IMG/VR virus record: IMGVR_UViG_3300027609_000006
Span: 1-58,096 of that record
Source of the DNA: a virus
Length of the DNA stretch: 58,096 bases
Reading direction: 5' to 3' (one strand)
The translations under genes were made by a program, and so were the position numbers. This document shows, in pieces, positions 2,905 to 53,320 of this stretch. Below the pieces are notes generated by a model. It worked only from the letters and a program-made list of their open reading frames with translations, did no database searches and was not told where the DNA came from. Numbering within the stretch: the stretch's first letter is position 1; each line of letters begins with the position of its first letter.

Positions 2905-3429
2905 TCATCGCCTCCAAAACTCAAACCATCTCGGCTTAGCCCGAAGCATGATCCCCTGAGCCATCTCGAAAATGGTTGAGTTCCGCGCTTCCGCATCTGC
3001 GACATCTTCCTCGAAATGCTCTTTCATGAAGCTTCGGAACTGCGCCTGCTTCCGCTGATTCTCGATATGCGCGCGTCCGATGTCGGCCTGAATTGCGAGG
3101 GCGAGCTTGTTTGAAAACTCCGTCGAATATCCTAGCGCCAGTTCGCGGACCTGAAGGCGCACGATGCGGAATGGCTCAAGCGGTAACGCAGCGAGATCGG
3201 CAGCATGGTCTGCGGACCAATCGTCCAGTTCCTTTTCGAGGAAGTTGACTTTGTCGGCGACTTCGCCGGCGGGGAGTCCCATCACCGCCGCTGCTGCTTT
3301 CGTATCAACGTAGGAGAAGTTGTTTGATGTCATCTCCTCTTTTCCTCTCTGACCAGGTGGGAGTGAGTGCTTTTCCGGTTCGAACGGGATGCCGTCCTGG
3401 TTGGATGCTTTGGTGGTTTCTGTGCTCAT
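2905..3429 (-). CDS. Hypothetical protein
   Basis: ORF track, 174 aa. ATG preceded by GAGGCCAAACC. Confidence 0.7.
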   Translation of the reverse strand: MSTETTKASNQDGIPFEPEKHSLPPGQRGKEEMTSNNFSYVDTKAAAAVMGLPAGEVADKVNFLEKELDDWSADHAADLAALPLEPFRIVRLQVRELALGYSTEFSNKLALAIQADIGRAHIENQRKQAQFRSFMKEHFEEDVADAEARNSTIFEMAQGIMLRAKPRWFEFWRR

Positions 3430-3647
3430 GGTTTGGCCTCGGTCGGTATCGCGGTGCTGTCGAATTGCGTGCCCTCGACATGGGCAAACTGTGGACGCTC
3501 GGCGTAAAGAAATTTCCTAAGCTCCTCGGCGCACTTCGGGCACAAGTCGAGAAACTCTCCCGGTTGCCCTTCGGGCTGCAGTTTTACTGTAGTCCAAGGG
3601 CCGTCCTTGGTGGCCATGAAAGTCTTACACCAGTCGCAAGCCATCAT
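3426..3647 (-). CDS. Small zinc-ribbon protein
   Basis: MMACDWCKTF..CPKCAEEL. Ends ..IPTEAKP inside an R-form arm. Confidence 0.6.
   Translation of the reverse strand: MMACDWCKTFMATKDGPWTTVKLQPEGQPGEFLDLCPKCAEELRKFLYAERPQFAHVEGTQFDSTAIPTEAKP
3430..3486 (-). repeat. SAR arm, R-form
   Basis: Minus strand GCCCATGTCGAGGGCAC..CCGAGGCCAAACC, then ATG 3429. Confidence 0.85.
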
Positions 3648-3979
3648 ATGATCTTCTCTCCCCACCAAGCCCCACCACCCGAAACAATCATCCCGCCCGT
3701 ACCTCTCGCCACCCCTATTCGATAATGCAGCCGCACCTTATCCCCCAGTGAGAGTTCCGCTTTCTTCGGCGTATCCTGCGGGAGTTCCATGAGGACATAT
3801 GCACCATACGCGATGAGAAGGAAACAAGCCGCGAGCACCCCGAAGTACCATCCCCAGTGCCGGTCATAAACGCCGAACTGCAAGTCCCAGAACGCATAGA
3901 AAGAAACAATCAGTCCAACAGCGACCGCGAGCACCGCCTCCGATTGTGGAGAAACGATCAATTTTTCGATAAGAGACAT
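3644..3979 (-). CDS. Membrane protein with shared C-terminal module
   Basis: Two hydrophobic segments. C-terminus GDKVRLHYRIGVARGTGGMIVSGGGAWWGEKII is shared with 4059..4469. Confidence 0.6.
   Translation of the reverse strand: MSLIEKLIVSPQSEAVLAVAVGLIVSFYAFWDLQFGVYDRHWGWYFGVLAACFLLIAYGAYVLMELPQDTPKKAELSLGDKVRLHYRIGVARGTGGMIVSGGGAWWGEKII
3648..3737. repeat. Direct repeat copy 1 (~90 bp, about 88% identical to 4063..4152)
   Basis: ATGATCTTCTCTCCCCACCAAGC..GATAATGCAGCCG. Encodes the shared C-terminal module. Confidence 0.85.
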
Positions 3980-4058: not shown

Positions 4059-4469
4059 TCAAATGATCTTCTCTCCCCACCAAGCTCCACCACCCGAAAC
4101 AATCATGCCGCCCGTACCTCGCTCCACTCCAACCCGATAATGCAGCCGGACCCGGTCACCCAGTTGCAGCGCCCAGAGTCCCTGCATGCAATGCGGACAA
4201 GCTCCCCGTGATTTCTGACGTTCCATTTCCCATACCGATGTTTTGCAGCGCGGACACCAGTAGATGTAAGTTTCCCCGATCAGCCGCATGTGCCCGTGGT
4301 CGGCGACCTGACCGATTTCTTTCGAGTCCGTTTTGATCAGGATCGAGTATTCCGTAACTTGCTCGACTCTGCCGAAGACAAAGATGGGTTTACCCCAGGG
4401 GTCCAGTTGCGTGGCTTTCCCTGGCAGGTGGCGGGTGAGTCCGATTTTGGGGTAGATCACTTCGCCCAT
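4059..4469 (-). CDS. Zinc-ribbon protein with shared C-terminal module
   Basis: CPRCKTS..CPHCMQ, plus the C-terminus shared with 3644..3979. Confidence 0.65.
   Translation of the reverse strand: MGEVIYPKIGLTRHLPGKATQLDPWGKPIFVFGRVEQVTEYSILIKTDSKEIGQVADHGHMRLIGETYIYWCPRCKTSVWEMERQKSRGACPHCMQGLWALQLGDRVRLHYRVGVERGTGGMIVSGGGAWWGEKII
4063..4152. repeat. Direct repeat copy 2
   Basis: See 3648..3737. Confidence 0.85.
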
Positions 4470-4798
4470 TTTTTGGCCTCTTTCGGCAGTTCGCTGCGCA
4501 TCGGCGGTTCTCGTTCCACATTCGTAGGTTGGATCGACTGCCGGCGGAACTCTTCGACCATTTGCAAGGCTTGAATCCAGGAGATGCTCTGTCGGATCGA
4601 GCCGGGGATATCGTTCTCGCTCGGCAGAACGATGGCCAGCCGGTTATCGTCGCAATAAACCATGCGAACGATTCCGGCTTTGCGCATCTCGATCAGACCG
4701 GTGATGATCGTCATTCGCGATTCGAAAGCGTCGAACTCCATCTGTCCCGATGGCGGGCGCCGGAGCCTTCCCAACTCGCAAATGAGATCCGCATTCAC
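4457..4798 (-). CDS. Hypothetical protein
   Basis: GTG start 9 nt after AGGAGG. GTGA overlap with the upstream ORF. Confidence 0.6.
   Translation of the reverse strand: MNADLICELGRLRRPPSGQMEFDAFESRMTIITGLIEMRKAGIVRMVYCDDNRLAIVLPSENDIPGSIRQSISWIQALQMVEEFRRQSIQPTNVEREPPMRSELPKEAKKWAK
4470..4528 (-). repeat. SAR arm, R-form, degenerate
   Basis: Plus strand TTTTGGCCTCTTTCGG..GTTCCACATTCGTAGG. AGAGGCCAAAAA then ATG 4469. Confidence 0.55.
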
Positions 4799-4965
4799 CG
4801 GCTTCTTGCCTCCTGGATTACCCTACGTATCTCCGTCTCAAATGCGTCCATGTACCCCATAATCCTCGCCGTGGGAAGCATGACGGGACCAAGGAACTCC
4901 TCGAAACGTTTAATGGAGGCGGCGACAAGTTTTTCTAGTTCGGGAGCGAGTCGGACGGCGGGCAT
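4795..4965 (-). CDS. Small hypothetical protein (56 aa, below the ORF-track cutoff)
   Basis: Hand translation MPAVRLAPELEKLV..QEARSR. Fills the gap, with stop/start overlaps on both sides. Confidence 0.4.
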   Translation of the reverse strand: MPAVRLAPELEKLVAASIKRFEEFLGPVMLPTARIMGYMDAFETEIRRVIQEARSR

Positions 4966-4968
4966 GTT

Positions 4969-5226
4969 TTATCCGAGCACGTTCCCATCTTCGTCTTTGA
5001 TCTCTTCGGCCGGCTTCAGAATCGTTCCGACCTTGACGAGCTGGTAGACCGAGTTCTGCTGAAGGCCTTCAAGATCCGCGCCTTCGAGAACAACGACGTA
5101 GCAGCCGCCCGAGTGGTGGAGCATCATCGATTCGTCTGAGTCGTTGATTTCTTCGGTCCAGGATAAGCTTCCTACTTTTACTTCAAGGGCGGTGTGGTTG
5201 GGATTATAACGGAGTGTGGAGGACAT
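4969..5226 (-). CDS. Hypothetical protein
   Basis: ORF track, 85 aa. Confidence 0.6.
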   Translation of the reverse strand: MSSTLRYNPNHTALEVKVGSLSWTEEINDSDESMMLHHSGGCYVVVLEGADLEGLQQNSVYQLVKVGTILKPAEEIKDEDGNVLG

Positions 5227-5239
5227 AGGGGTTCCTTTT

Positions 5240-5300
5240 TCTTTAGCCTCAGTCGAATTTGGTTTGCACTTCAGGTTCAGAGCGTTCGACCAGGAGTGGT
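5240..5300 (-). repeat. SAR arm, R-form
   Basis: Minus strand CCACTCCTGGTCGAACGCTC..GACTGAGGCTAAAG, 15 nt before ATG 5226. Confidence 0.8.
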
Positions 5301-5317
5301 TTTGGAGCGTTCACAGG

Positions 5318-5536
5318 CTATCCTCGTGAATTTTGCGCATCAATCAGCCGCTTCTCGCATTCCCAATCCTCAACCCCCAGAGTCACCAGCCAAGCCGGAG
5401 CCTGCCCGGAAGCGACATCGGGGCGATTCAGGATTTCGGCTTGTTCCCGCGCGCAACGCTCCACCGCTTCGCCTGGTCGAACGGGCAACCGGGCGGGCGT
5501 CAGATCGGTGCTCGATGAGGCTAATTCCAAATCCAT
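5318..5536 (-). CDS. Small cassette ORF (start uncertain)
   Basis: MDLELASSS..LPVRPGE is F-form arm translation. The body contains WECEKRL. Confidence 0.35.
   Translation of the reverse strand: MDLELASSSTDLTPARLPVRPGEAVERCAREQAEILNRPDVASGQAPAWLVTLGVEDWECEKRLIDAQNSRG
5467..5528 (-). repeat. SAR arm, F-form
   Basis: Minus strand GGAATTAGCCTCATCGAGC..CCCGTTCGACCAGGCGAAG. Confidence 0.7.
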
Positions 5537-7022: not shown

Positions 7023-7294
7023 AAACCTTCTCCGAAGCCTGCGAATCCACCTTCATGCGAACAGTTCCGGTAGGTTCGGCAGACCACAAAAGCACTATGG
7101 AAGCCATCGATACACGCATAGGCCCGTTCATTTCAATGGTGGATGAAATCCAGAATGCGCCAGAAACCCACGCCTTTGCGGCCGTGCTGCTCGAAATGGC
7201 AAGCGGAGAAGATTTGAACATGGCCGAGGTTATCAAAATCGCCTTCTCCCACGGCGTGATGGTGGGAGTGGAAATGGAGAAGCCCGATGCTTAG
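7019..7294 (+). CDS. Hypothetical protein
   Basis: ORF track. Confidence 0.6.
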   Translation: MKTFSEACESTFMRTVPVGSADHKSTMEAIDTRIGPFISMVDEIQNAPETHAFAAVLLEMASGEDLNMAEVIKIAFSHGVMVGVEMEKPDA

Positions 7295-11957: not shown

Positions 11958-11962
11958 TCGCG

Positions 11963-12172
11963 ATGGAACCGACGCGCACCTCGCGTGATTTAAAAATTCT
12001 CCGGAGCGAAGATCGACTCCGCGCCGTGCTCAATCTTCCGCCGCGCCAGCCAATCACGATTCACGGACCCGGTAAACGATCGCCAGAGGAAACCGCCCGT
12101 CTGATCGCCGATCTGGAGGCGAAAACCGGGATCAAACACGATTTTGCCACCGGCAACCCGCCAAAGTCTTAA
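11963..12172 (+). CDS. Hypothetical protein
   Basis: ORF track. Confidence 0.5.
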   Translation: MEPTRTSRDLKILRSEDRLRAVLNLPPRQPITIHGPGKRSPEETARLIADLEAKTGIKHDFATGNPPKS

Positions 12173-12182
12173 TACAATCCAT

Positions 12183-12210
12183 GCGTGGACGCTTGTAGAT
12201 GCGTCCACGC
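12183..12210 (+). promoter_or_regulatory. Perfect 10-bp-stem hairpin (attenuator, operator or terminator)
   Basis: GCGTGGACGC-TTGTAGAT-GCGTCCACGC. TAGAAT follows at 12217. Confidence 0.45.
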
Positions 12211-12230
12211 AAGGTGTAGAATGTTTTTGG

Positions 12231-12698
12231 ATGCCAAGTACCAGACAGTCCTTAAAAACGCGTCTGACGACGCCGGGAGCCGAAACGCTCAAGCGAAAAA
12301 AGAGGCCAAAACCGCCCGCCGCGCCAGTCGCCAAAAAGAAGTGGCCGAAACGCAGATGTGACAACTGCGGCGATTGGTTCGACAAAAAACGAAAGACGCA
12401 AAAATTCTGCCCTAAAAACAACGGCGCATGCCGAAAAGAATTTTTCCGTTACGGAGCTGCATTTGGTCCACTGAAACTCGGTTTAGAAAAAACCATCGAG
12501 AAAAAATGCGCCGGCCTCCGTGCTCAGGTTGCCGAGCAGTTGAGAATCGCCGCCGATGTAATCGCGAAGTTGGAAACGCGAATAGCTCGCATTGAACAAC
12601 TCTGCGAGGGCGTCCAAAAACAAGAAGCGTACGAGCGCGAGTTCAGCCTCGCGAATGTCGAACGCTCAGAAAGACGCGCGAAGCAGAATGCCGGATGA
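12231..12698 (+). CDS. Basic zinc-ribbon plus coiled-coil protein
   Basis: KKKWPKRRCDNCGDWF..FCPKNNGACRKEFF. Confidence 0.6.
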   Translation: MPSTRQSLKTRLTTPGAETLKRKKRPKPPAAPVAKKKWPKRRCDNCGDWFDKKRKTQKFCPKNNGACRKEFFRYGAAFGPLKLGLEKTIEKKCAGLRAQVAEQLRIAADVIAKLETRIARIEQLCEGVQKQEAYEREFSLANVERSERRAKQNAG

Positions 12699-42951: not shown

Positions 42952-43167
42952 TAGTCTGCCACAAAACACCAGTTTTTCAAGGTACTAAAGTACTGTTATT
43001 AAGTACCATTGTTTTCAATCCCTGAAACCGCTAGGATGCAGAGAGGTTTTATAGCAGCCACCCAATGCCCCGAAAAGACCCCTACCGCGAGTTTCTCCGC
43101 AACAAAGGGTAATTATATAGTTGACAAACTTTCAGGAATTCGCTAACCTTGGTTTCGGCGTGACAGG

Positions 43168-48978: not shown

Positions 48979-50076
48979 ATCATCTCCATTCGGTGCTCCC
49001 AATCCTGAACACGCATCCGGTCCTCTTCGTGCCGAGTACGTCCCATTCTCTCCCCGCGTGATGTCCACAAAGCAATTGGGATTCAGAAACAGCTTCGGAG
49101 TCACAAATCCCAGTTTTTTTCCGAACGACGCGAACAACCCCGCATACAGTGGCGCAACCGCGCTCGTGCCCCCGATCACTTGTGACTGACCATAGACCAC
49201 GATTTGATACCCAGTATTGGGATCGGCGTTGGCCGTGACATCGGGAACCATCCGACCCAATCCCGCCGGCGGCTTCGGCGCGCCAATCTGAAAACTCTGC
49301 ACCGGGAAGAACGTTGAGAACCCGCCACCTGTCCCTTCGCCATTAGTCGTTCCCGGATTGTTGTTCCAAACCGTTTCGGAGTTCGTGACCTTCGTGGTTC
49401 CTCCGCAACCAACCACATGGGGACAGGAAGCCGGCGCATCGACGTTTGCCGCATTTGGTCCGCCATCCGAGGAGTCGTTATCCCCCGCCGCCGCGAACAC
49501 CGCCATGCCCGCAGTAACGGCCGCCAGAGCCGCGCTCTCCATCTGCTGGAGCCCTGCGTTGCCCCAATCCGCTTCGTCAGCTCCCCAGGAGATCGAGCAC
49601 ACGTCGCAGCCGTCGTTCATTGCCGCAGTGAGAGCTGGTGCGATGTCTTGCGCCCAGTAGACGCGGATGTTCGCCTGTTTGCCGGTGGCGTGCTGGTAGG
49701 CTGCTGCTGCTACCTGGATGTCCAGCGCCACTTCGAAGTCTGCATCGTTCTGCGGGTTTTGCAGGGAGTTCTGTGTCCCGTCGACGGAGACGTCGGTGAT
49801 GTTGGGGACGGGTTGGTTGATCGATGCGAAGAACGCGGCCATGTCGGATTGGACCCAGCCGCCGCCCAGTTCGATGATCGCGATGGTTGCGCCGCCTGGT
49901 GCTGTGCTCACTGGGAAGTGGTAGGAACCTAAGAGGGTGGGGAGTTTCCAGGGGCCAGTGTGCGGGTTGGTGATGAGACGCTGGACTGCCGCCCATGCGG
50001 AATTAACATGCGGGGCTCTCTTGAAGTATGGATGGCATTTGATCTGCCGTTGGGTGGGAGAGGATTGGGAGTTCAT
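48955..50076 (-). CDS. Sedolisin/kumamolisin-like S53 serine-carboxyl peptidase
   Basis: DFEVALDIQ, CSISWG, IGGTSAVAPLYAG. Confidence 0.75.
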   Translation of the reverse strand: MNSQSSPTQRQIKCHPYFKRAPHVNSAWAAVQRLITNPHTGPWKLPTLLGSYHFPVSTAPGGATIAIIELGGGWVQSDMAAFFASINQPVPNITDVSVDGTQNSLQNPQNDADFEVALDIQVAAAAYQHATGKQANIRVYWAQDIAPALTAAMNDGCDVCSISWGADEADWGNAGLQQMESAALAAVTAGMAVFAAAGDNDSSDGGPNAANVDAPASCPHVVGCGGTTKVTNSETVWNNNPGTTNGEGTGGGFSTFFPVQSFQIGAPKPPAGLGRMVPDVTANADPNTGYQIVVYGQSQVIGGTSAVAPLYAGLFASFGKKLGFVTPKLFLNPNCFVDITRGENGTYSARRGPDACSGLGAPNGDDLLALFSV

Positions 50077-50079
50077 TTT

Positions 50080-50140
50080 TGTTTTGGCCTCATCGGGATT
50101 CGGGATTCACGTCGGATTGGGAGCGTTCGACATTCAGGGT
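50080..50140 (-). repeat. SAR arm, R-form
   Basis: Minus strand CCCTGAATGTCGAACGCTC..CCGATGAGGCCAAAACAAAA, then ATG 50076. Confidence 0.85.
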
Positions 50141-50676
50141 TTGATCATCGATTTCGCTTTGATCGAAGTAGCAGCCAATTTCTTCTGAAGCCCTCCCAGC
50201 GCGTGCCGGTCACCCATCGATAAACTCAACGGCTTCGACCCTTCCACGCTGTGCGCCAACTTCACAGCCGTCGGCGAATTGATCTGAGACAGGAACAACT
50301 GCACCGCCGACGCGATCGCGTTCACTAGCGCCTGCACTTCCGGCCCCACGGTTGGACCCAGCGCGGGAACGGCGACATCCGCGAAGTAACCGATGATCTT
50401 CGTGTCCATCACGGAAACTGGATCTTTCGTCAGCAGCTCCGCGGCCGATTGAGATGCTGCCGTGCTCACGGCGCCCGTGTACGCCAGAATAATGTTGCCG
50501 ATTCCAGAGGGTAGAATTCCCGATGCTTCGACAATTGGGACGGCTACGGTTGCCGCAGTGCACGCGTCGGAAAGGACGGTCAAATCGGTGGAGAGTTGAG
50601 AAGTGGAGCAGGCTGAGAGGATCAGGACTGCTACGAAGATGAGGGAAAGCAGAAAGATCGTGATTGTGTTTTTCAT
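50134..50676 (-). CDS. Putative lipoprotein
   Basis: MKNTITIFLLSLIFVAVLILSAC (lipobox-like LSAC). Confidence 0.6.
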   Translation of the reverse strand: MKNTITIFLLSLIFVAVLILSACSTSQLSTDLTVLSDACTAATVAVPIVEASGILPSGIGNIILAYTGAVSTAASQSAAELLTKDPVSVMDTKIIGYFADVAVPALGPTVGPEVQALVNAIASAVQLFLSQINSPTAVKLAHSVEGSKPLSLSMGDRHALGGLQKKLAATSIKAKSMIKP

Positions 50677-50683
50677 TTGGTAA

Positions 50684-51712
50684 TTATATACATGAGTCCC
50701 GTGACATTGTGGTTTCAACGACTTCCCCTCTCAGTTCTGAAAATAACGAAGCGCGCAGGCAGTACGGGCTAAACCAGATTCTTTCCCGCGTCGAGTTCTC
50801 CCGCGCCGCGTTATCGCCCTGAGAGCCGTATCCGCCGCGCGCCTTCCACGGGATGCACTCCCAGGAAGTCGGCATGGCGTGCTCACCTTCGTAGCCGCAC
50901 AGCGCGATTCTGGCGCGGGAATCGTTACCCATTTCAATCGCCCACTCCCGGACGGCGTGTGCCACGTCTCCGCTGTCCTGCGAATAGAGGTCACTGGTCC
51001 GTTCGGCTTCGTCTGCGTAAGGCGGATCGAGGAAGACACCCGTAATGCCATGCTTGACCGTCACCGAAGGGCCGCACACCCGCTGCCAATCTCCGCAGCA
51101 TACCCTTACGCTCCGCAGCCGCTCGGCCAAGTCGCGCATATAGGCCAGCAATTGGCCGCGCCGCGTCCCCGAGGTGAGGTCGCTGGCGATGTCGCCCGTG
51201 CCCGCGTCCCCGAGGTGAGGTAGCTGGCGGTTTAGCCCTTTGCCCGCGTCCCCGAGGTGAGGTAGCTTACGATGTACGCCCGTGCCCGCGTTCCCGAGGT
51301 GAGGTAGCTGCTTCGCGCACCACCCGGCTCCGATCCAAATGCACTGTCCCCATACCCACCATCCTGCAATTTTGACATCATAAAACTCCGGGTCTACTTT
51401 CATTCGTTCGCGAAACTCAGCCTGCGAACAGAGCCATAAATGCCGGGCGTGTTGATCGGCTTCGTTCACCGGGTTGTCCGCGTGCTCTGCGACCGCCTCC
51501 GGTTCATGCTGGAGCGCCCGCCAGAAGTTCGCCACCAGACAATCGAGGTCGTTTATCGTCTCCGTGGACGGCGCGTGTGGACGATTCAGGAGCACCGCGC
51601 CGGAGCCAAAGAACGGCTCGACGTAGTTCTGAACATTGCCGAATCTCTCCCAGACCAATTCGGCAACACTCGACTTGCCCCCGAACCACGGAAATGGAGG
51701 TTTTAGGCTCAT
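50684..51712 (-). CDS. Dam-like (D12 class) N6-adenine DNA methyltransferase
   Basis: FPWFGGKS, EPFFGSGAV, FLDPPY. Has an internal 13-aa tandem repeat LPHLG(D/N)AG.G. The stop lies inside the left TIR. Confidence 0.85.
   Translation of the reverse strand: MSLKPPFPWFGGKSSVAELVWERFGNVQNYVEPFFGSGAVLLNRPHAPSTETINDLDCLVANFWRALQHEPEAVAEHADNPVNEADQHARHLWLCSQAEFRERMKVDPEFYDVKIAGWWVWGQCIWIGAGWCAKQLPHLGNAGTGVHRKLPHLGDAGKGLNRQLPHLGDAGTGDIASDLTSGTRRGQLLAYMRDLAERLRSVRVCCGDWQRVCGPSVTVKHGITGVFLDPPYADEAERTSDLYSQDSGDVAHAVREWAIEMGNDSRARIALCGYEGEHAMPTSWECIPWKARGGYGSQGDNAARENSTRERIWFSPYCLRASLFSELRGEVVETTMSRDSCI
51158..51312. repeat. 39-40-bp tandem repeat (3 good copies plus 1 degenerate) inside the MTase gene
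   Basis: Unit TGCCCGCGTCCCCGAGGTGAGGTAGCT plus a ~12-nt variable part. Confidence 0.75.
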
Positions 51713-51747
51713 TTTTTATCCACGGGACTCATGTATATAATTACCTT

Positions 51748-51966
51748 TCATTTTGAATCGGCCTCCGTCGGCTTTGTGGCTTCGTGCGGCGTGTCTCGCC
51801 CGACCATGAGGGAATCTTTTTGGGCTTTGAGGAAAGCCACTCCTTCCTCAGCAGTGTAGGGGCACCGGGTAGAGCCGAAGTGGATTCCTCCACAATTAGG
51901 ACAGTCCCCCACCTGGTGGAACGCATTCGACGCCGCGCGAAGAGTCGATCCCGATGAGGCCAACAT
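51748..51966 (-). CDS. Cassette ORF, zinc-ribbon protein
   Basis: MLASSGS..FHQVGD is F-arm translation. Contains CPNCGG..TRC. C-terminus ..MVGRDTPHEATKPTEADSK is R-arm translation. Confidence 0.5.
   Translation of the reverse strand: MLASSGSTLRAASNAFHQVGDCPNCGGIHFGSTRCPYTAEEGVAFLKAQKDSLMVGRDTPHEATKPTEADSK
51755..51815 (-). repeat. SAR arm, R-form
   Basis: Minus strand GATTCCCTCATGGTCGGGCGAG..GCCGACGGAGGCCGATTC. Its tail AAAATGAAA is the TIR target. Confidence 0.85.
51906..51966 (-). repeat. SAR arm, F-form (translated)
   Basis: Minus strand ATGTTGGCCTCATCGGGATCG..AATGCGTTCCACCAGGTGGGGG. Confidence 0.85.
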
Positions 51967-51971
51967 AAAAC

Positions 51972-52214
51972 CTAAGCCGCCATCACCAACGCCGAAATCT
52001 GCGCTGCCCAAGCGGAAGATGTCGGAGGAGCAAGATATCGATTCAGAACGATACCTAGCCCCTCCCACAATCCGCGCTCCCCTTCGGACGGCGTATACGC
52101 CGCACGCTTCAGCATCACCCGCAGCTCGGCCGCGAGCACCGTGTTGTTATCGCTGGCCGGGGCTGTGGCGAGGATGGCAAGAATTTGAGTCACGAGGTTA
52201 GAAAATTTGCTCAT
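51972..52214 (-). CDS. Hypothetical protein
   Basis: AAAGGAAAC lies before ATG 52214. Confidence 0.5.
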   Translation of the reverse strand: MSKFSNLVTQILAILATAPASDNNTVLAAELRVMLKRAAYTPSEGERGLWEGLGIVLNRYLAPPTSSAWAAQISALVMAA

Positions 52215-52225
52215 GGTGTTTCCTT

Positions 52226-53320
52226 TCAAACGAGTGGTCTTTCCGATCCGTAGAGGTTCGGATCGTCTTCCGTGCGGGACACGAAGTATTGGCGGATTTC
52301 ATCACGCAGCGCCGGTTTGTTCGGGGTCAACTGGAGAATACCCTGCGAATCCGGGAATACATCCGTGTACGGGGAATACTGATGCTTCGCGAGGATCTTG
52401 TCGCGCGATGAATACGCCCGCCGCGTCTTCGATCCGTGAAAGAAGTGGTTTGCGTGCCCATCCACATACCCAACGTTTTTCTTGATGACCTGTGCGCGCT
52501 CGCGCCAGCTCTCGACATAATGTTTGTAGTCGGGGTGGTAGTTCTGGGTATGGATATCAGGCGGTTGAATGCCTACCAGAGAATAGGCCACGTACCAATC
52601 AGCGTGTCCCAGGATGCAGCGATTCGGGAATCCTCCGACCGCATCGAATGCCGTTTTGCGAAATGCGATCGCGCCTCCGGTTGCTCCCACGCCGCGGCGG
52701 AACATCGCGCCCTCGTAACCGTCTTCATCCACGACACCATTCGGCACGTTCGAGTTATGGAAGACCGGAGAAACTTCGAAGCCGTTCTGGTGGTAGTTGA
52801 AAAAGAAACCGGAGTTGTAGTGCACCGGCAGATTTTTTTGGCCGTAGATGTTTCCGGAGAGGTCCGCATAGCTCGAAAAGCATTGGACGAAATCGTAATG
52901 CTGGAGCTGGTGGATGGTTTCGAGCGCCCAGTCGTGCCGGGTAAAATGGAAATCTGCGTCGATCATGGCGCCATACTTCCATCCCACATCGAAGTTTTGG
53001 ATCACCCGGTTGGCGATGTCCTCTTTGTGGAAGAGTTCGCAGGTGGTGCGCAGCGGGATGCTGACAATTGGTCGGACGAAGTGTCCAATGTCTTCCGCGA
53101 TCTCGAAGGGGCGGGCGCCGTACGCCAGTTCACCCACGTACACTTTCACGTTCGGACTGTTTCGCAGATGCCGGATGCAGTTGTTCGCCAACTCGCGCCG
53201 GGTTCTCCACCGGAAAGGGTTGGAGTAGCAGACGGCGACGTGGAGGGTTTGGTCTTCAGACCACTCGGACCAGGGCGAGTGGATATCGGGATGATTAAGG
53301 GAGTGGTTTACCGGGGGCAT
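52226..53320 (-). CDS. Putative GT-A-fold glycosyltransferase
   Basis: AMIDADFHF (DxD-like), GATGGAIAFRKTAFDAVGGF. Confidence 0.5.
   Translation of the reverse strand: MPPVNHSLNHPDIHSPWSEWSEDQTLHVAVCYSNPFRWRTRRELANNCIRHLRNSPNVKVYVGELAYGARPFEIAEDIGHFVRPIVSIPLRTTCELFHKEDIANRVIQNFDVGWKYGAMIDADFHFTRHDWALETIHQLQHYDFVQCFSSYADLSGNIYGQKNLPVHYNSGFFFNYHQNGFEVSPVFHNSNVPNGVVDEDGYEGAMFRRGVGATGGAIAFRKTAFDAVGGFPNRCILGHADWYVAYSLVGIQPPDIHTQNYHPDYKHYVESWRERAQVIKKNVGYVDGHANHFFHGSKTRRAYSSRDKILAKHQYSPYTDVFPDSQGILQLTPNKPALRDEIRQYFVSRTEDDPNLYGSERPLV

Follow-up and report, generated by a model that had tools for sequence, protein, structure and literature searches.

The window analysed here is the whole of the virus record IMGVR_UViG_3300027609_000006 (58,096 nucleotides). 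It contains a 1,067-bp element in which one gene, coding for a predicted DNA adenine methyltransferase, is enclosed by perfect 25-bp terminal inverted repeats and flanked by an 8-bp target duplication. This element is very probably a non-autonomous derivative of the IS1595 family of insertion sequences (ISs), namely a single-gene mobile insertion cassette (MIC) bearing a Dam-fold methyltransferase gene, which is presumably moved in trans.

The two arms, GGTAATTATATACATGAGTCCCGTG and its exact reverse complement, are complementary at 25 of 25 positions and 1,017 nt apart, and they represent the only window copies of this repeat at up to three mismatches (none in 100 shuffles). The sequence TTTCATTT stands directly outside both ends, the match between the two flanks being exactly 8 bp long, so that the perfect repeats and the target duplication described in the initial annotation are borne out. 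The same is true of the cargo, since the sole long open reading frame (ORF) of the element takes up 1,029 of its 1,067 bp, matches Pfam MethyltransfD12 and terminates inside the left repeat (Table 1). None of the 95 window ORFs matched a DDE transposase family in Pfam, and a tblastn search of the window with an IS1595 transposase query gave no match, in agreement with the earlier observation that the element encodes no transposase and the genome none of the DDE type.

Family of the ends

Since searches with the full 25-bp window repeat in its exact form, or with a 20-mer taken from it, gave no match in viral or metagenome contigs, the end family could be retrieved only with a degenerate consensus. 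This consensus, GGKAMTTAYATACWTRASTCCC, was built from divergent copies of the cassette (those of L001, L018 and L019/L024), and about four chance matches to it are estimated in 596 Gb. It matches at least 120 loci in bacterial genomes and likewise at least 120 viral contigs in IMG/VR. The window repeat agrees with the IS1595-group consensus GGGAATTATATACTTGACTCCC at 19 of 22 positions and differs at three.

Among the matches listed, a transposase homologue of about 305 aa is present in 65 of the 120 bacterial loci (tblastn), while an IS1595 transposase or a fragment of it occurs in 52 of the 118 viral loci with these ends. The ~305-aa protein scores 193 bits against NCBIfam NF033547 “IS1595 family transposase” (cut-off 75), its plasmid homologues are annotated under the same name, and the transposase copies that were scanned contain the Pfam domains DDE_Tnp_IS1595 (~1e-42) and Zn_ribbon_IS1595. 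The database search for other cargoes and a partner transposase suggested in the initial annotation has thus revealed IS1595 transposases flanked by the same end family both in bacteria and in viral contigs. In deposited phage genomes, the IS1595 transposase was found in just three fragmentary gut phage records.

Exact 8/8 duplications flank 37 bacterial end pairs among the matches listed, including autonomous, cassette and miniature forms, which span from a 110-bp miniature to 3.5-kb elements with a transposase and a passenger; at least 58 viral end pairs have duplications matching at 7/8 or 8/8. In the window, viral contigs and bacterial genomes together, the duplications of 44 elements are 83% A+T. 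The end family occurs in many phyla, flanking unrelated cargo as well as IS1595 transposases, with an 8-bp duplication that differs each time, and it includes true MITEs (miniature transposable elements with inverted repeats) of 110–330 bp.

Eight-bp duplications, a zinc finger plus a DDE_Tnp_IS1595 domain are the traits of the IS1595 family (PMC8101967). The window element shares the 8-bp duplication and has ends homologous to those of autonomous elements, and as the window has no IS1595 transposase, the element should be considered a derivative and not an IS. The combination of IS1595-type ends with the absence of IS1595 or any other DDE transposase points to a non-autonomous IS1595-family cassette. 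According to PMC3129680, which cites Siguier et al. (2009), a MIC is a transposase-less derivative with passenger genes and a transporter IS is an IS with passenger genes. The former corresponds to what we find, that is, IS-type inverted repeats around a passenger gene, no transposase and the target duplication of the family. The element is not a MITE, which would be small and non-coding, nor a composite transposon, which would have two complete IS copies at its flanks, where only 25-bp repeats are present. That it is mobilised in trans is presumed, since both in genomes and in viral contigs the same ends are found together with IS1595 transposases.

The ends GGTAATTAT and GGGAATTAT fit the motif “ggnnatTAT” of the ISNwi1 subgroup of IS1595 (8-bp repeats, length 1.08–1.2 kb), and membership of this subgroup is a lead only. 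Two further arrangements were noted during the survey. In an alphaproteobacterial metagenome-assembled genome (OZ252220.1, L110, 1465-2196) three copies of the end consensus lie on the same strand at a spacing of 355 bp, a tandem order unlike the usual inverted pairs. In the viral contig IMGVR_UViG_3300025936_000062 (L025, 5031-6445) an end pair without matching duplication surrounds a C-terminal fragment of an IS1595 transposase and lies beside a D12 methyltransferase gene that has no repeats.

Insertion site and copies elsewhere

The same cassette occurs at other sites in unrelated contigs. The closest homologue of the methyltransferase (P0003, 92% identity) is located on contig L001, in a different genomic context, within an element 89.5% identical to that of the window. 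Its ends are GGGAATTATATACATGAGTCCCGTG on both sides, 24/25 identical to the window repeat with the one difference at position 3, and they are flanked by the duplication TAATAAAA (8/8). The divergent copies L018 and L019/L024 (65–71% aa identity) have the homologous ends GGGAATTAYATACTTAACTCC… and GGGACTTATATACTTGAGTCCC; the duplication is CTAACAAG (8/8) in L019/L024 and CTTTCTTT (8/8) in L196, and it matches at 7/8 in L018. With a junction-specific pattern, which combined the end with the first residues (PFPW) of the methyltransferase, 5 viral loci and 23 metagenome loci were recovered; most of them come from peat and bog samples.

Complete cassettes are found at no fewer than five distinct sites, with an exact duplication in the window, L001, L019/L024/L195/L210/L215 and L196, and a 7/8 match in L018/L194. 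The presence of one cassette at different sites (window, L001, L018, L019/L024, L196) is the movement expected from a MIC, and it bears out the target-duplicating insertion of a non-autonomous element that was initially proposed. Contig L001 also contains, at 4332-5408, a TnpB/OrfB_IS605 (Cas12f-like) gene about 1.1 kb from the cassette, which is unrelated to the cassette mobility.

The pre-insertion coding strand of the window can be reconstructed as …GGAGGCCGATTCAAAATGAAAAACACA…, where the TGA that ends the upstream ORF and the ATG of the lipoprotein gene downstream overlap (ATGA). The initial annotation noticed that the duplicated 8-mer carries a start codon; this holds, and to it we add that the stop codon of the upstream ORF is also inside the 8-mer. 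Both flanking genes survive because the duplicated AAATGAAA holds both the stop and the start signals. The 11-codon stub opened by the duplicated start codon was likewise confirmed as MKGNYIHESRG*, read from the distal ATG.

We suggest that an IS1595-family DDE transposase, provided in trans from the host chromosome, from a co-resident prophage or from a different phage, would have inserted the cassette into this A+T-rich 8-mer, that is, into the stop/start overlap of two genes that were probably co-translated. A staggered cut followed by repair would duplicate the 8-mer, so that the upstream ORF keeps its stop and the lipoprotein gene its start. Cassette and operon are read in the same direction, the stub starting from the old ribosome-binding site ends just before the methyltransferase ATG, and the TAA of the methyltransferase lies 7 nt before the lipoprotein ATG. 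At the 5' end of the cassette, each of the three incoming reading frames meets a stop no later than the methyltransferase ATG. Judging from this geometry, both the methyltransferase and the lipoprotein could be expressed by termination–reinitiation (translational) coupling, with ribosomes from the old ribosome-binding site presumably translating first the stub, then the methyltransferase and then the lipoprotein. An asymmetric layout recurs in many cassettes (left ends of L101, L112, L126, L176 and L019): one end is followed by a Shine–Dalgarno-like (C/T)TGGAG and then by the start codon of the cargo.

Related genomes were also searched for empty sites, as initially suggested, and these were found at the gene level. 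Lipoprotein homologues with 87%, 82% and 65% identity occur at loci L229, L232 and L230 (the last one on a 59.9-kb contig); in all three the lipoprotein gene abuts or overlaps the stop of the upstream ORF, and neither a methyltransferase nor repeats are present upstream. These loci are empty sites at the gene level. The upstream ORFs of the window and L230 gave no BLASTP alignment and resemble each other in DNA only over a short stretch at their 3' ends; because of this, L230 is a gene-level and not a nucleotide-exact empty site, and the DNA resemblance is only suggestive. Relatives reached through the neighbouring S8 peptidase (54–60% identity) had no synteny around the site.

Table 1. Features of the methyltransferase cassette and its surroundings in the window
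Feature	Position	Strand	Remarks
Proximal copy of the 8-bp target-site duplication	50671..50678		Provides the ATG of the lipoprotein gene (50676-50674)
Terminal inverted repeat, 3' end of the cassette	50679..50703	+	Includes the last six codons of the methyltransferase and its TAA stop (50684-50686)
Cargo gene, 342-aa D12-class (Dam-fold) N6-adenine DNA methyltransferase (predicted)	50684..51712	-	Motif I (FFGSG) and motif IV (DPPY)
42-bp tandem repeat in the methyltransferase gene, ~3.6 to 4 units	51158..51324	-	Encodes a 14-aa repeat
11-codon stub ORF, MKGNYIHESRG*	51716..51751	-	Start is the duplicated ATG, preceded by the original GGAGG ribosome-binding site; TAA stop separated from the methyltransferase ATG by 3 nt
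Terminal inverted repeat at the cassette end that lies 5' of the methyltransferase gene	51721..51745	-	Minus-strand reading GGTAATTATATACATGAGTCCCGTG; methyltransferase ATG 8 nt on
Distal copy of the 8-bp target-site duplication	51746..51753		TTTCATTT; coding strand AAATGAAA; includes an ATG, now orphaned, and the stop codon (TGA) ending the upstream ORF
Downstream flanking gene, 180-aa putative lipoprotein	50134..50676	-	Signal peptide with LSAC lipobox; intact; cut off from its GGAGG ribosome-binding site
Upstream flanking ORF	51748..52068	-	72 aa according to other pipelines; before the insertion its TGA and the lipoprotein start codon formed an ATGA overlap
Probable solo decayed inverted-repeat end of the same family, GGTAATTATATAGTTGACAAAC	43108..43129	+	Intergenic; first 12 nt match the tip of the cassette exactly, with its rare GGT

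The cassette is carried by a phage-like circular genome of 58 kb. The window was assembled as a circle, with its opening 99 bases repeated at its end (~58.0 kb, 55.9% G+C), and the same genome with an identical methyltransferase is present in at least seven contigs from other samples, which excludes an assembly artefact. Two of its ORFs resemble HerA/FtsK-type (packaging) ATPases, one of them matching a terminase-large-subunit PHROG, and other PHROG matches include an endolysin and a tape-measure-like protein; a portal or major capsid protein had no recognisable PHROG or Pfam match in the window. The genome also encodes a serine recombinase (resolvase/invertase), several glycosyltransferases, a GH43 protein, the S8 peptidase and a PIN/FitA-like pair. 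For the probable solo end listed in Table 1, whose 13-mer pattern has a chance expectation of 0.04 per window, no partner end was found.

Weighing the alternatives

Several observations weigh against the interpretation of the element as an IS1595-family MIC moved in trans. The cognate transposase is not tied to the host of this phage, and all copies found of the phage genome have the insertion, so that current mobility is only presumed. The exact empty site GGAGGCCGATTCAAAATGAAAAACACA, taken as a 23-mer, had no match in viral contigs, and we found no near-identical genome containing it; the relatives that represent empty sites show only 65–87% protein identity and have partly different upstream genes. 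Five short metagenome contigs (L197, L198, L205, L211 and L217) have the cassette without matching duplications, and their unmatched flanks may result from chimeric assembly or from recombination between copies. Most close homologues of the methyltransferase are free of inverted repeats. Finally, the protein scores 42.4 bits against the NCBIfam Dam model (TIGR00571, GATC-specific), far below the cut-off of 114.85, which places it outside the Dam subfamily as this model defines it.

The uniform presence of the insertion in this genome and the absence of a transposase from the window would be expected if the cassette were a fossil, the product of a single insertion that has since become fixed and domesticated as a phage gene and can no longer be mobilised because it meets no compatible transposase. 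Decay of the ends is indeed seen at related methyltransferase genes: L003 has a full right end (7067-7088) and a 5'-truncated left end (~5960), while L017/L056 have kept the left end (2960-2981) and suffered an internal deletion of the right one (~4120), so that these three represent the stages of cassette immobilisation. In a neighbour-joining tree the repeat-bearing methyltransferases fall into two clades with many repeat-less ones between them, and, as some of the ends are half-decayed, this pattern is compatible with, and somewhat favours, a single old capture followed by repeated loss of ends over repeated capture. Moreover, the end variant of the window and L001 (…ACATGAGTCCCGTG) is absent from the genome matches listed, the nearest of which differ at 3 of 25 positions.

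Nevertheless, the fossil state seems unlikely for the window cassette itself, because its repeats (25/25) and its duplication (8/8) are perfect and the cassette sits at different sites in different phages. Besides, the two 25-bp ends of the window and L001 copies differ only at position 3 despite a synonymous divergence (dS) of 0.42 between their cargo genes, which argues for continued selection for mobility. With dN/dS (the ratio of nonsynonymous to synonymous divergence) of 0.10 in the same comparison, the methyltransferase is under purifying selection, and both cargo and ends look constrained.

Phage mosaicism is common, and one could suppose that the cassette did not transpose into this genome but came in, together with its old flanks, when the phage recombined with a different one; the short contigs without matching duplications might be explained in the same way. 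We regard this as very improbable, since the identical 8-mers on both sides restore a sensible ATGA junction similar to that in the relatives, and the flanks beyond the 8-mers have no similarity to other cassette-bearing loci.

It is still harder to accept that the repeats and the 8-mers are conserved regulatory or structural sequences, such as operators or terminator-like palindromes, around a resident gene. The repeats do contain a TATAAT hexamer and the 8-mer does contain translation signals, but the same repeats surround unrelated cargo and IS1595 transposases in many phyla with different 8-bp duplications. A sigma-70 promoter scan of positions 50000-52400 found no site, the TATAAT in the ends being without a -35 element, and neither a full promoter nor a terminator was predicted. 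The possibility of outward transcription from the ends, raised in the initial annotation, was dropped for the same reason, since the hexamer alone makes no complete sigma-70-type site. Conserved regulatory sequence without insertion polymorphism had been named there as the finding that would overturn the insertion; in fact, the relatives of the flanking lipoprotein gene occur without the repeats and without the insertion.

Mobilisation by the methyltransferase-like protein itself or by the serine recombinase of the window is scarcely credible: although the methyltransferase is the sole gene inside, its sequence and the repeats have co-diverged across two clades and the window does encode a resolvase/invertase, the protein has a canonical Dam fold with AdoMet/DPPY motifs and no nuclease or recombinase domain, the only gene that elements with these ends have in common is the IS1595 DDE transposase, and serine recombinases make no 8-bp target duplications. 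Both enzymes were rejected as the mobilising agent on these grounds.

Methyltransferase cargo, related cassettes and known systems

The cargo is a predicted D12-class (Dam-fold) N6-adenine methyltransferase. It scores 46.1 bits against Pfam MethyltransfD12 (PF02086; gathering cut-off 22), with the match limited to the N-terminal 75 residues. Among 50 homologues, residues G36, S37 and DPPY 229–232 are invariant and G38 is nearly so (at least 90%). The AlphaFold2 model (pTM 0.70) has Escherichia coli Dam, DpnM and T4 Dam as its best Foldseek matches, with probability 1.0. In deposited phage genomes there is no close copy of the element, and the nearest methyltransferase there is 40% identical. 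The enzyme would most likely methylate the DNA of the phage itself and so protect it from host restriction, because phage orphan methyltransferases generally do so.

The tandem repeat in the gene encodes a 14-aa unit, (Q/K)LPHLG(D/N)AG(T/K/R)G(V/L)(H/N)R, the copy number of which ranges from 0 to at least 6 across homologues. The number of 42-bp units differs even between cassettes at one site (1,189 bp in L019 and 1,021 bp in L024), and the cassette lengths include a 42-bp ladder of 979, 1021, 1063, 1105 and 1189. The repeat region occupies the place of the target-recognition domain of Dam-type enzymes, and the structure model is uninformative on it (pLDDT <50). The repeat might tune the activity or specificity of the D12 methyltransferase.

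To characterise the wider family, 20 transposase-less viral cassettes with duplications were scanned individually against Pfam. N6_N4 methyltransferases were found in six of them (L241, L278, L304, L312, L313 and L319), and single cases were a Mom-family protein (L304), a Dam-type match (PF05869) just below the cut-off (L321) and a PAPS-reductase-domain protein (L273); MazG-like (L336) and winged-helix (L239) domains gave weak sub-gathering matches, and the remaining nine of the 20 had no Pfam match. Overall, DNA-modification genes (N4/N6, C5 and D12 methyltransferases, Mom and Dam) appear to be the main cargo of transposase-less viral cassettes with these ends.

Two viral contigs have more than one cassette. 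IMGVR_UViG_3300042090_003226 (L194, the same phage contig as L018) carries, in addition to its D12 methyltransferase cassette, a second cassette of 697 bp (3167-3863) with the duplication AAAAATAA and a 216-aa C5 cytosine methyltransferase, as well as a solo end at 118-139. In IMGVR_UViG_3300012231_000054 (L304) two transposase-less cassettes (1658-2462 and 11961-12588), both with exact 8-bp duplications, carry an N6_N4 methyltransferase and the Mom-family DNA-modification protein, respectively. The flanks of eight cassette-bearing viral loci include portal, tail, head-protease and major-head genes. Five N6_N4 methyltransferases, a gene resembling dCTP deaminase, an MqsR toxin and an HNH nuclease are among the cargoes of bacterial copies.

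The asymmetric design of the ends suggests a common cassette “chassis” that receives different genes. As every incoming frame is closed by the ends near the point where the cargo begins, such a cassette could be expressed wherever it lands. We tentatively propose, as a possibility somewhat less likely than not, that the IS1595 end family serves environmental phages as a shared “plug-in” system, in which single-gene transposase-less cassettes with 8-bp duplications are moved by host- or phage-borne IS1595 transposases and preferentially carry DNA-modification (anti-restriction) cargo.

The acquisition and exchange of orphan methyltransferases by phages is mostly ascribed to recombination. Here, a defined transposon family repeatedly brings DNA-modification genes as single-gene cassettes into unrelated phages and, in this window, without damage to either flanking gene. 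If the cargo bias is true, this would give phages a concrete and testable way of passing anti-restriction functions to one another. The presence of the same ends in host genomes provides a marker that could link phages to their hosts, for example to Acidobacteriota in peat, and the element offers a natural minimal cassette design for putting genes into operons. Taken alone, it is an ordinary, if very clean, MIC, and the interest lies mainly in the recurrent DNA-modification cargo in phages.

We found no open-access literature linking IS1595, methyltransferase passengers and phages, the nearest accounts being those of bacterial modification-gene units (PMC2853133) and of MITEs that phages have in common with their hosts (PMC11602168). 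The initial annotation considered the delivery of a lone methyltransferase into a phage genome unusual; this holds only in a relative sense, since the end family is common in environmental viral contigs and similar bacterial units are known (PMC2853133). In these units, described by Furuta, Abe & Kobayashi (2010, PMC2853133), restriction-modification or orphan M genes lie within terminal inverted repeats (26/26 in Neisseria gonorrhoeae), no transposase is present and an 8-bp duplication was shown for two (in Xanthomonas oryzae and N. gonorrhoeae), all of which resembles the window element. However, they reside in bacterial chromosomes, their ends have no family and their mover was not identified in that paper, whereas the ends of the window element could be placed in an IS family whose autonomous partners are known, and the carriers here are phages.

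The IS1595 elements and transporter ISs of Siguier, Gagnevin & Chandler (2009), as outlined in PMC3129680 and PMC8101967, are similar to the window element in having ends that start with GG and 8-bp duplications. The relatives of the window element with the same ~22-bp ends carry Zn-ribbon and DDE_Tnp_IS1595 transposases, many of them together with passengers that include DNA methyltransferases. The window element, unlike these ISs, has no transposase and resides in a phage-like genome and not in a bacterial chromosome.

A further parallel is provided by MICs such as MIC231, which derives from IS231 in Bacillus cereus (De Palmenaer et al. 2004, as cited by PMC3129680). These combine IS-family repeats around passengers, the lack of a transposase, presumed trans-mobilisation and the duplication typical of the parent family, and all of these are shared by the window element. 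The differences are that its parent family is IS1595 and not IS4/IS231, that the cargo is a methyltransferase and the carrier a phage, and that its cassette lineage is old enough for cargo and ends to have co-diverged (65–92% aa identity).

Finally, ISs are reportedly rare in phage genomes (PMC11602168), and viral MITEs (Nadal-Molero et al. 2024, PMC11602168) are, like the window element, non-autonomous inverted-repeat elements common to hosts and phages. Most phage MITEs occur in phages of Acidobacteriae and Desulfobaccales (PMC11602168), groups that dominate or appear among the genome matches listed for the end family studied here. MITEs, however, are non-coding, whereas the window element is filled by its gene from end to end.

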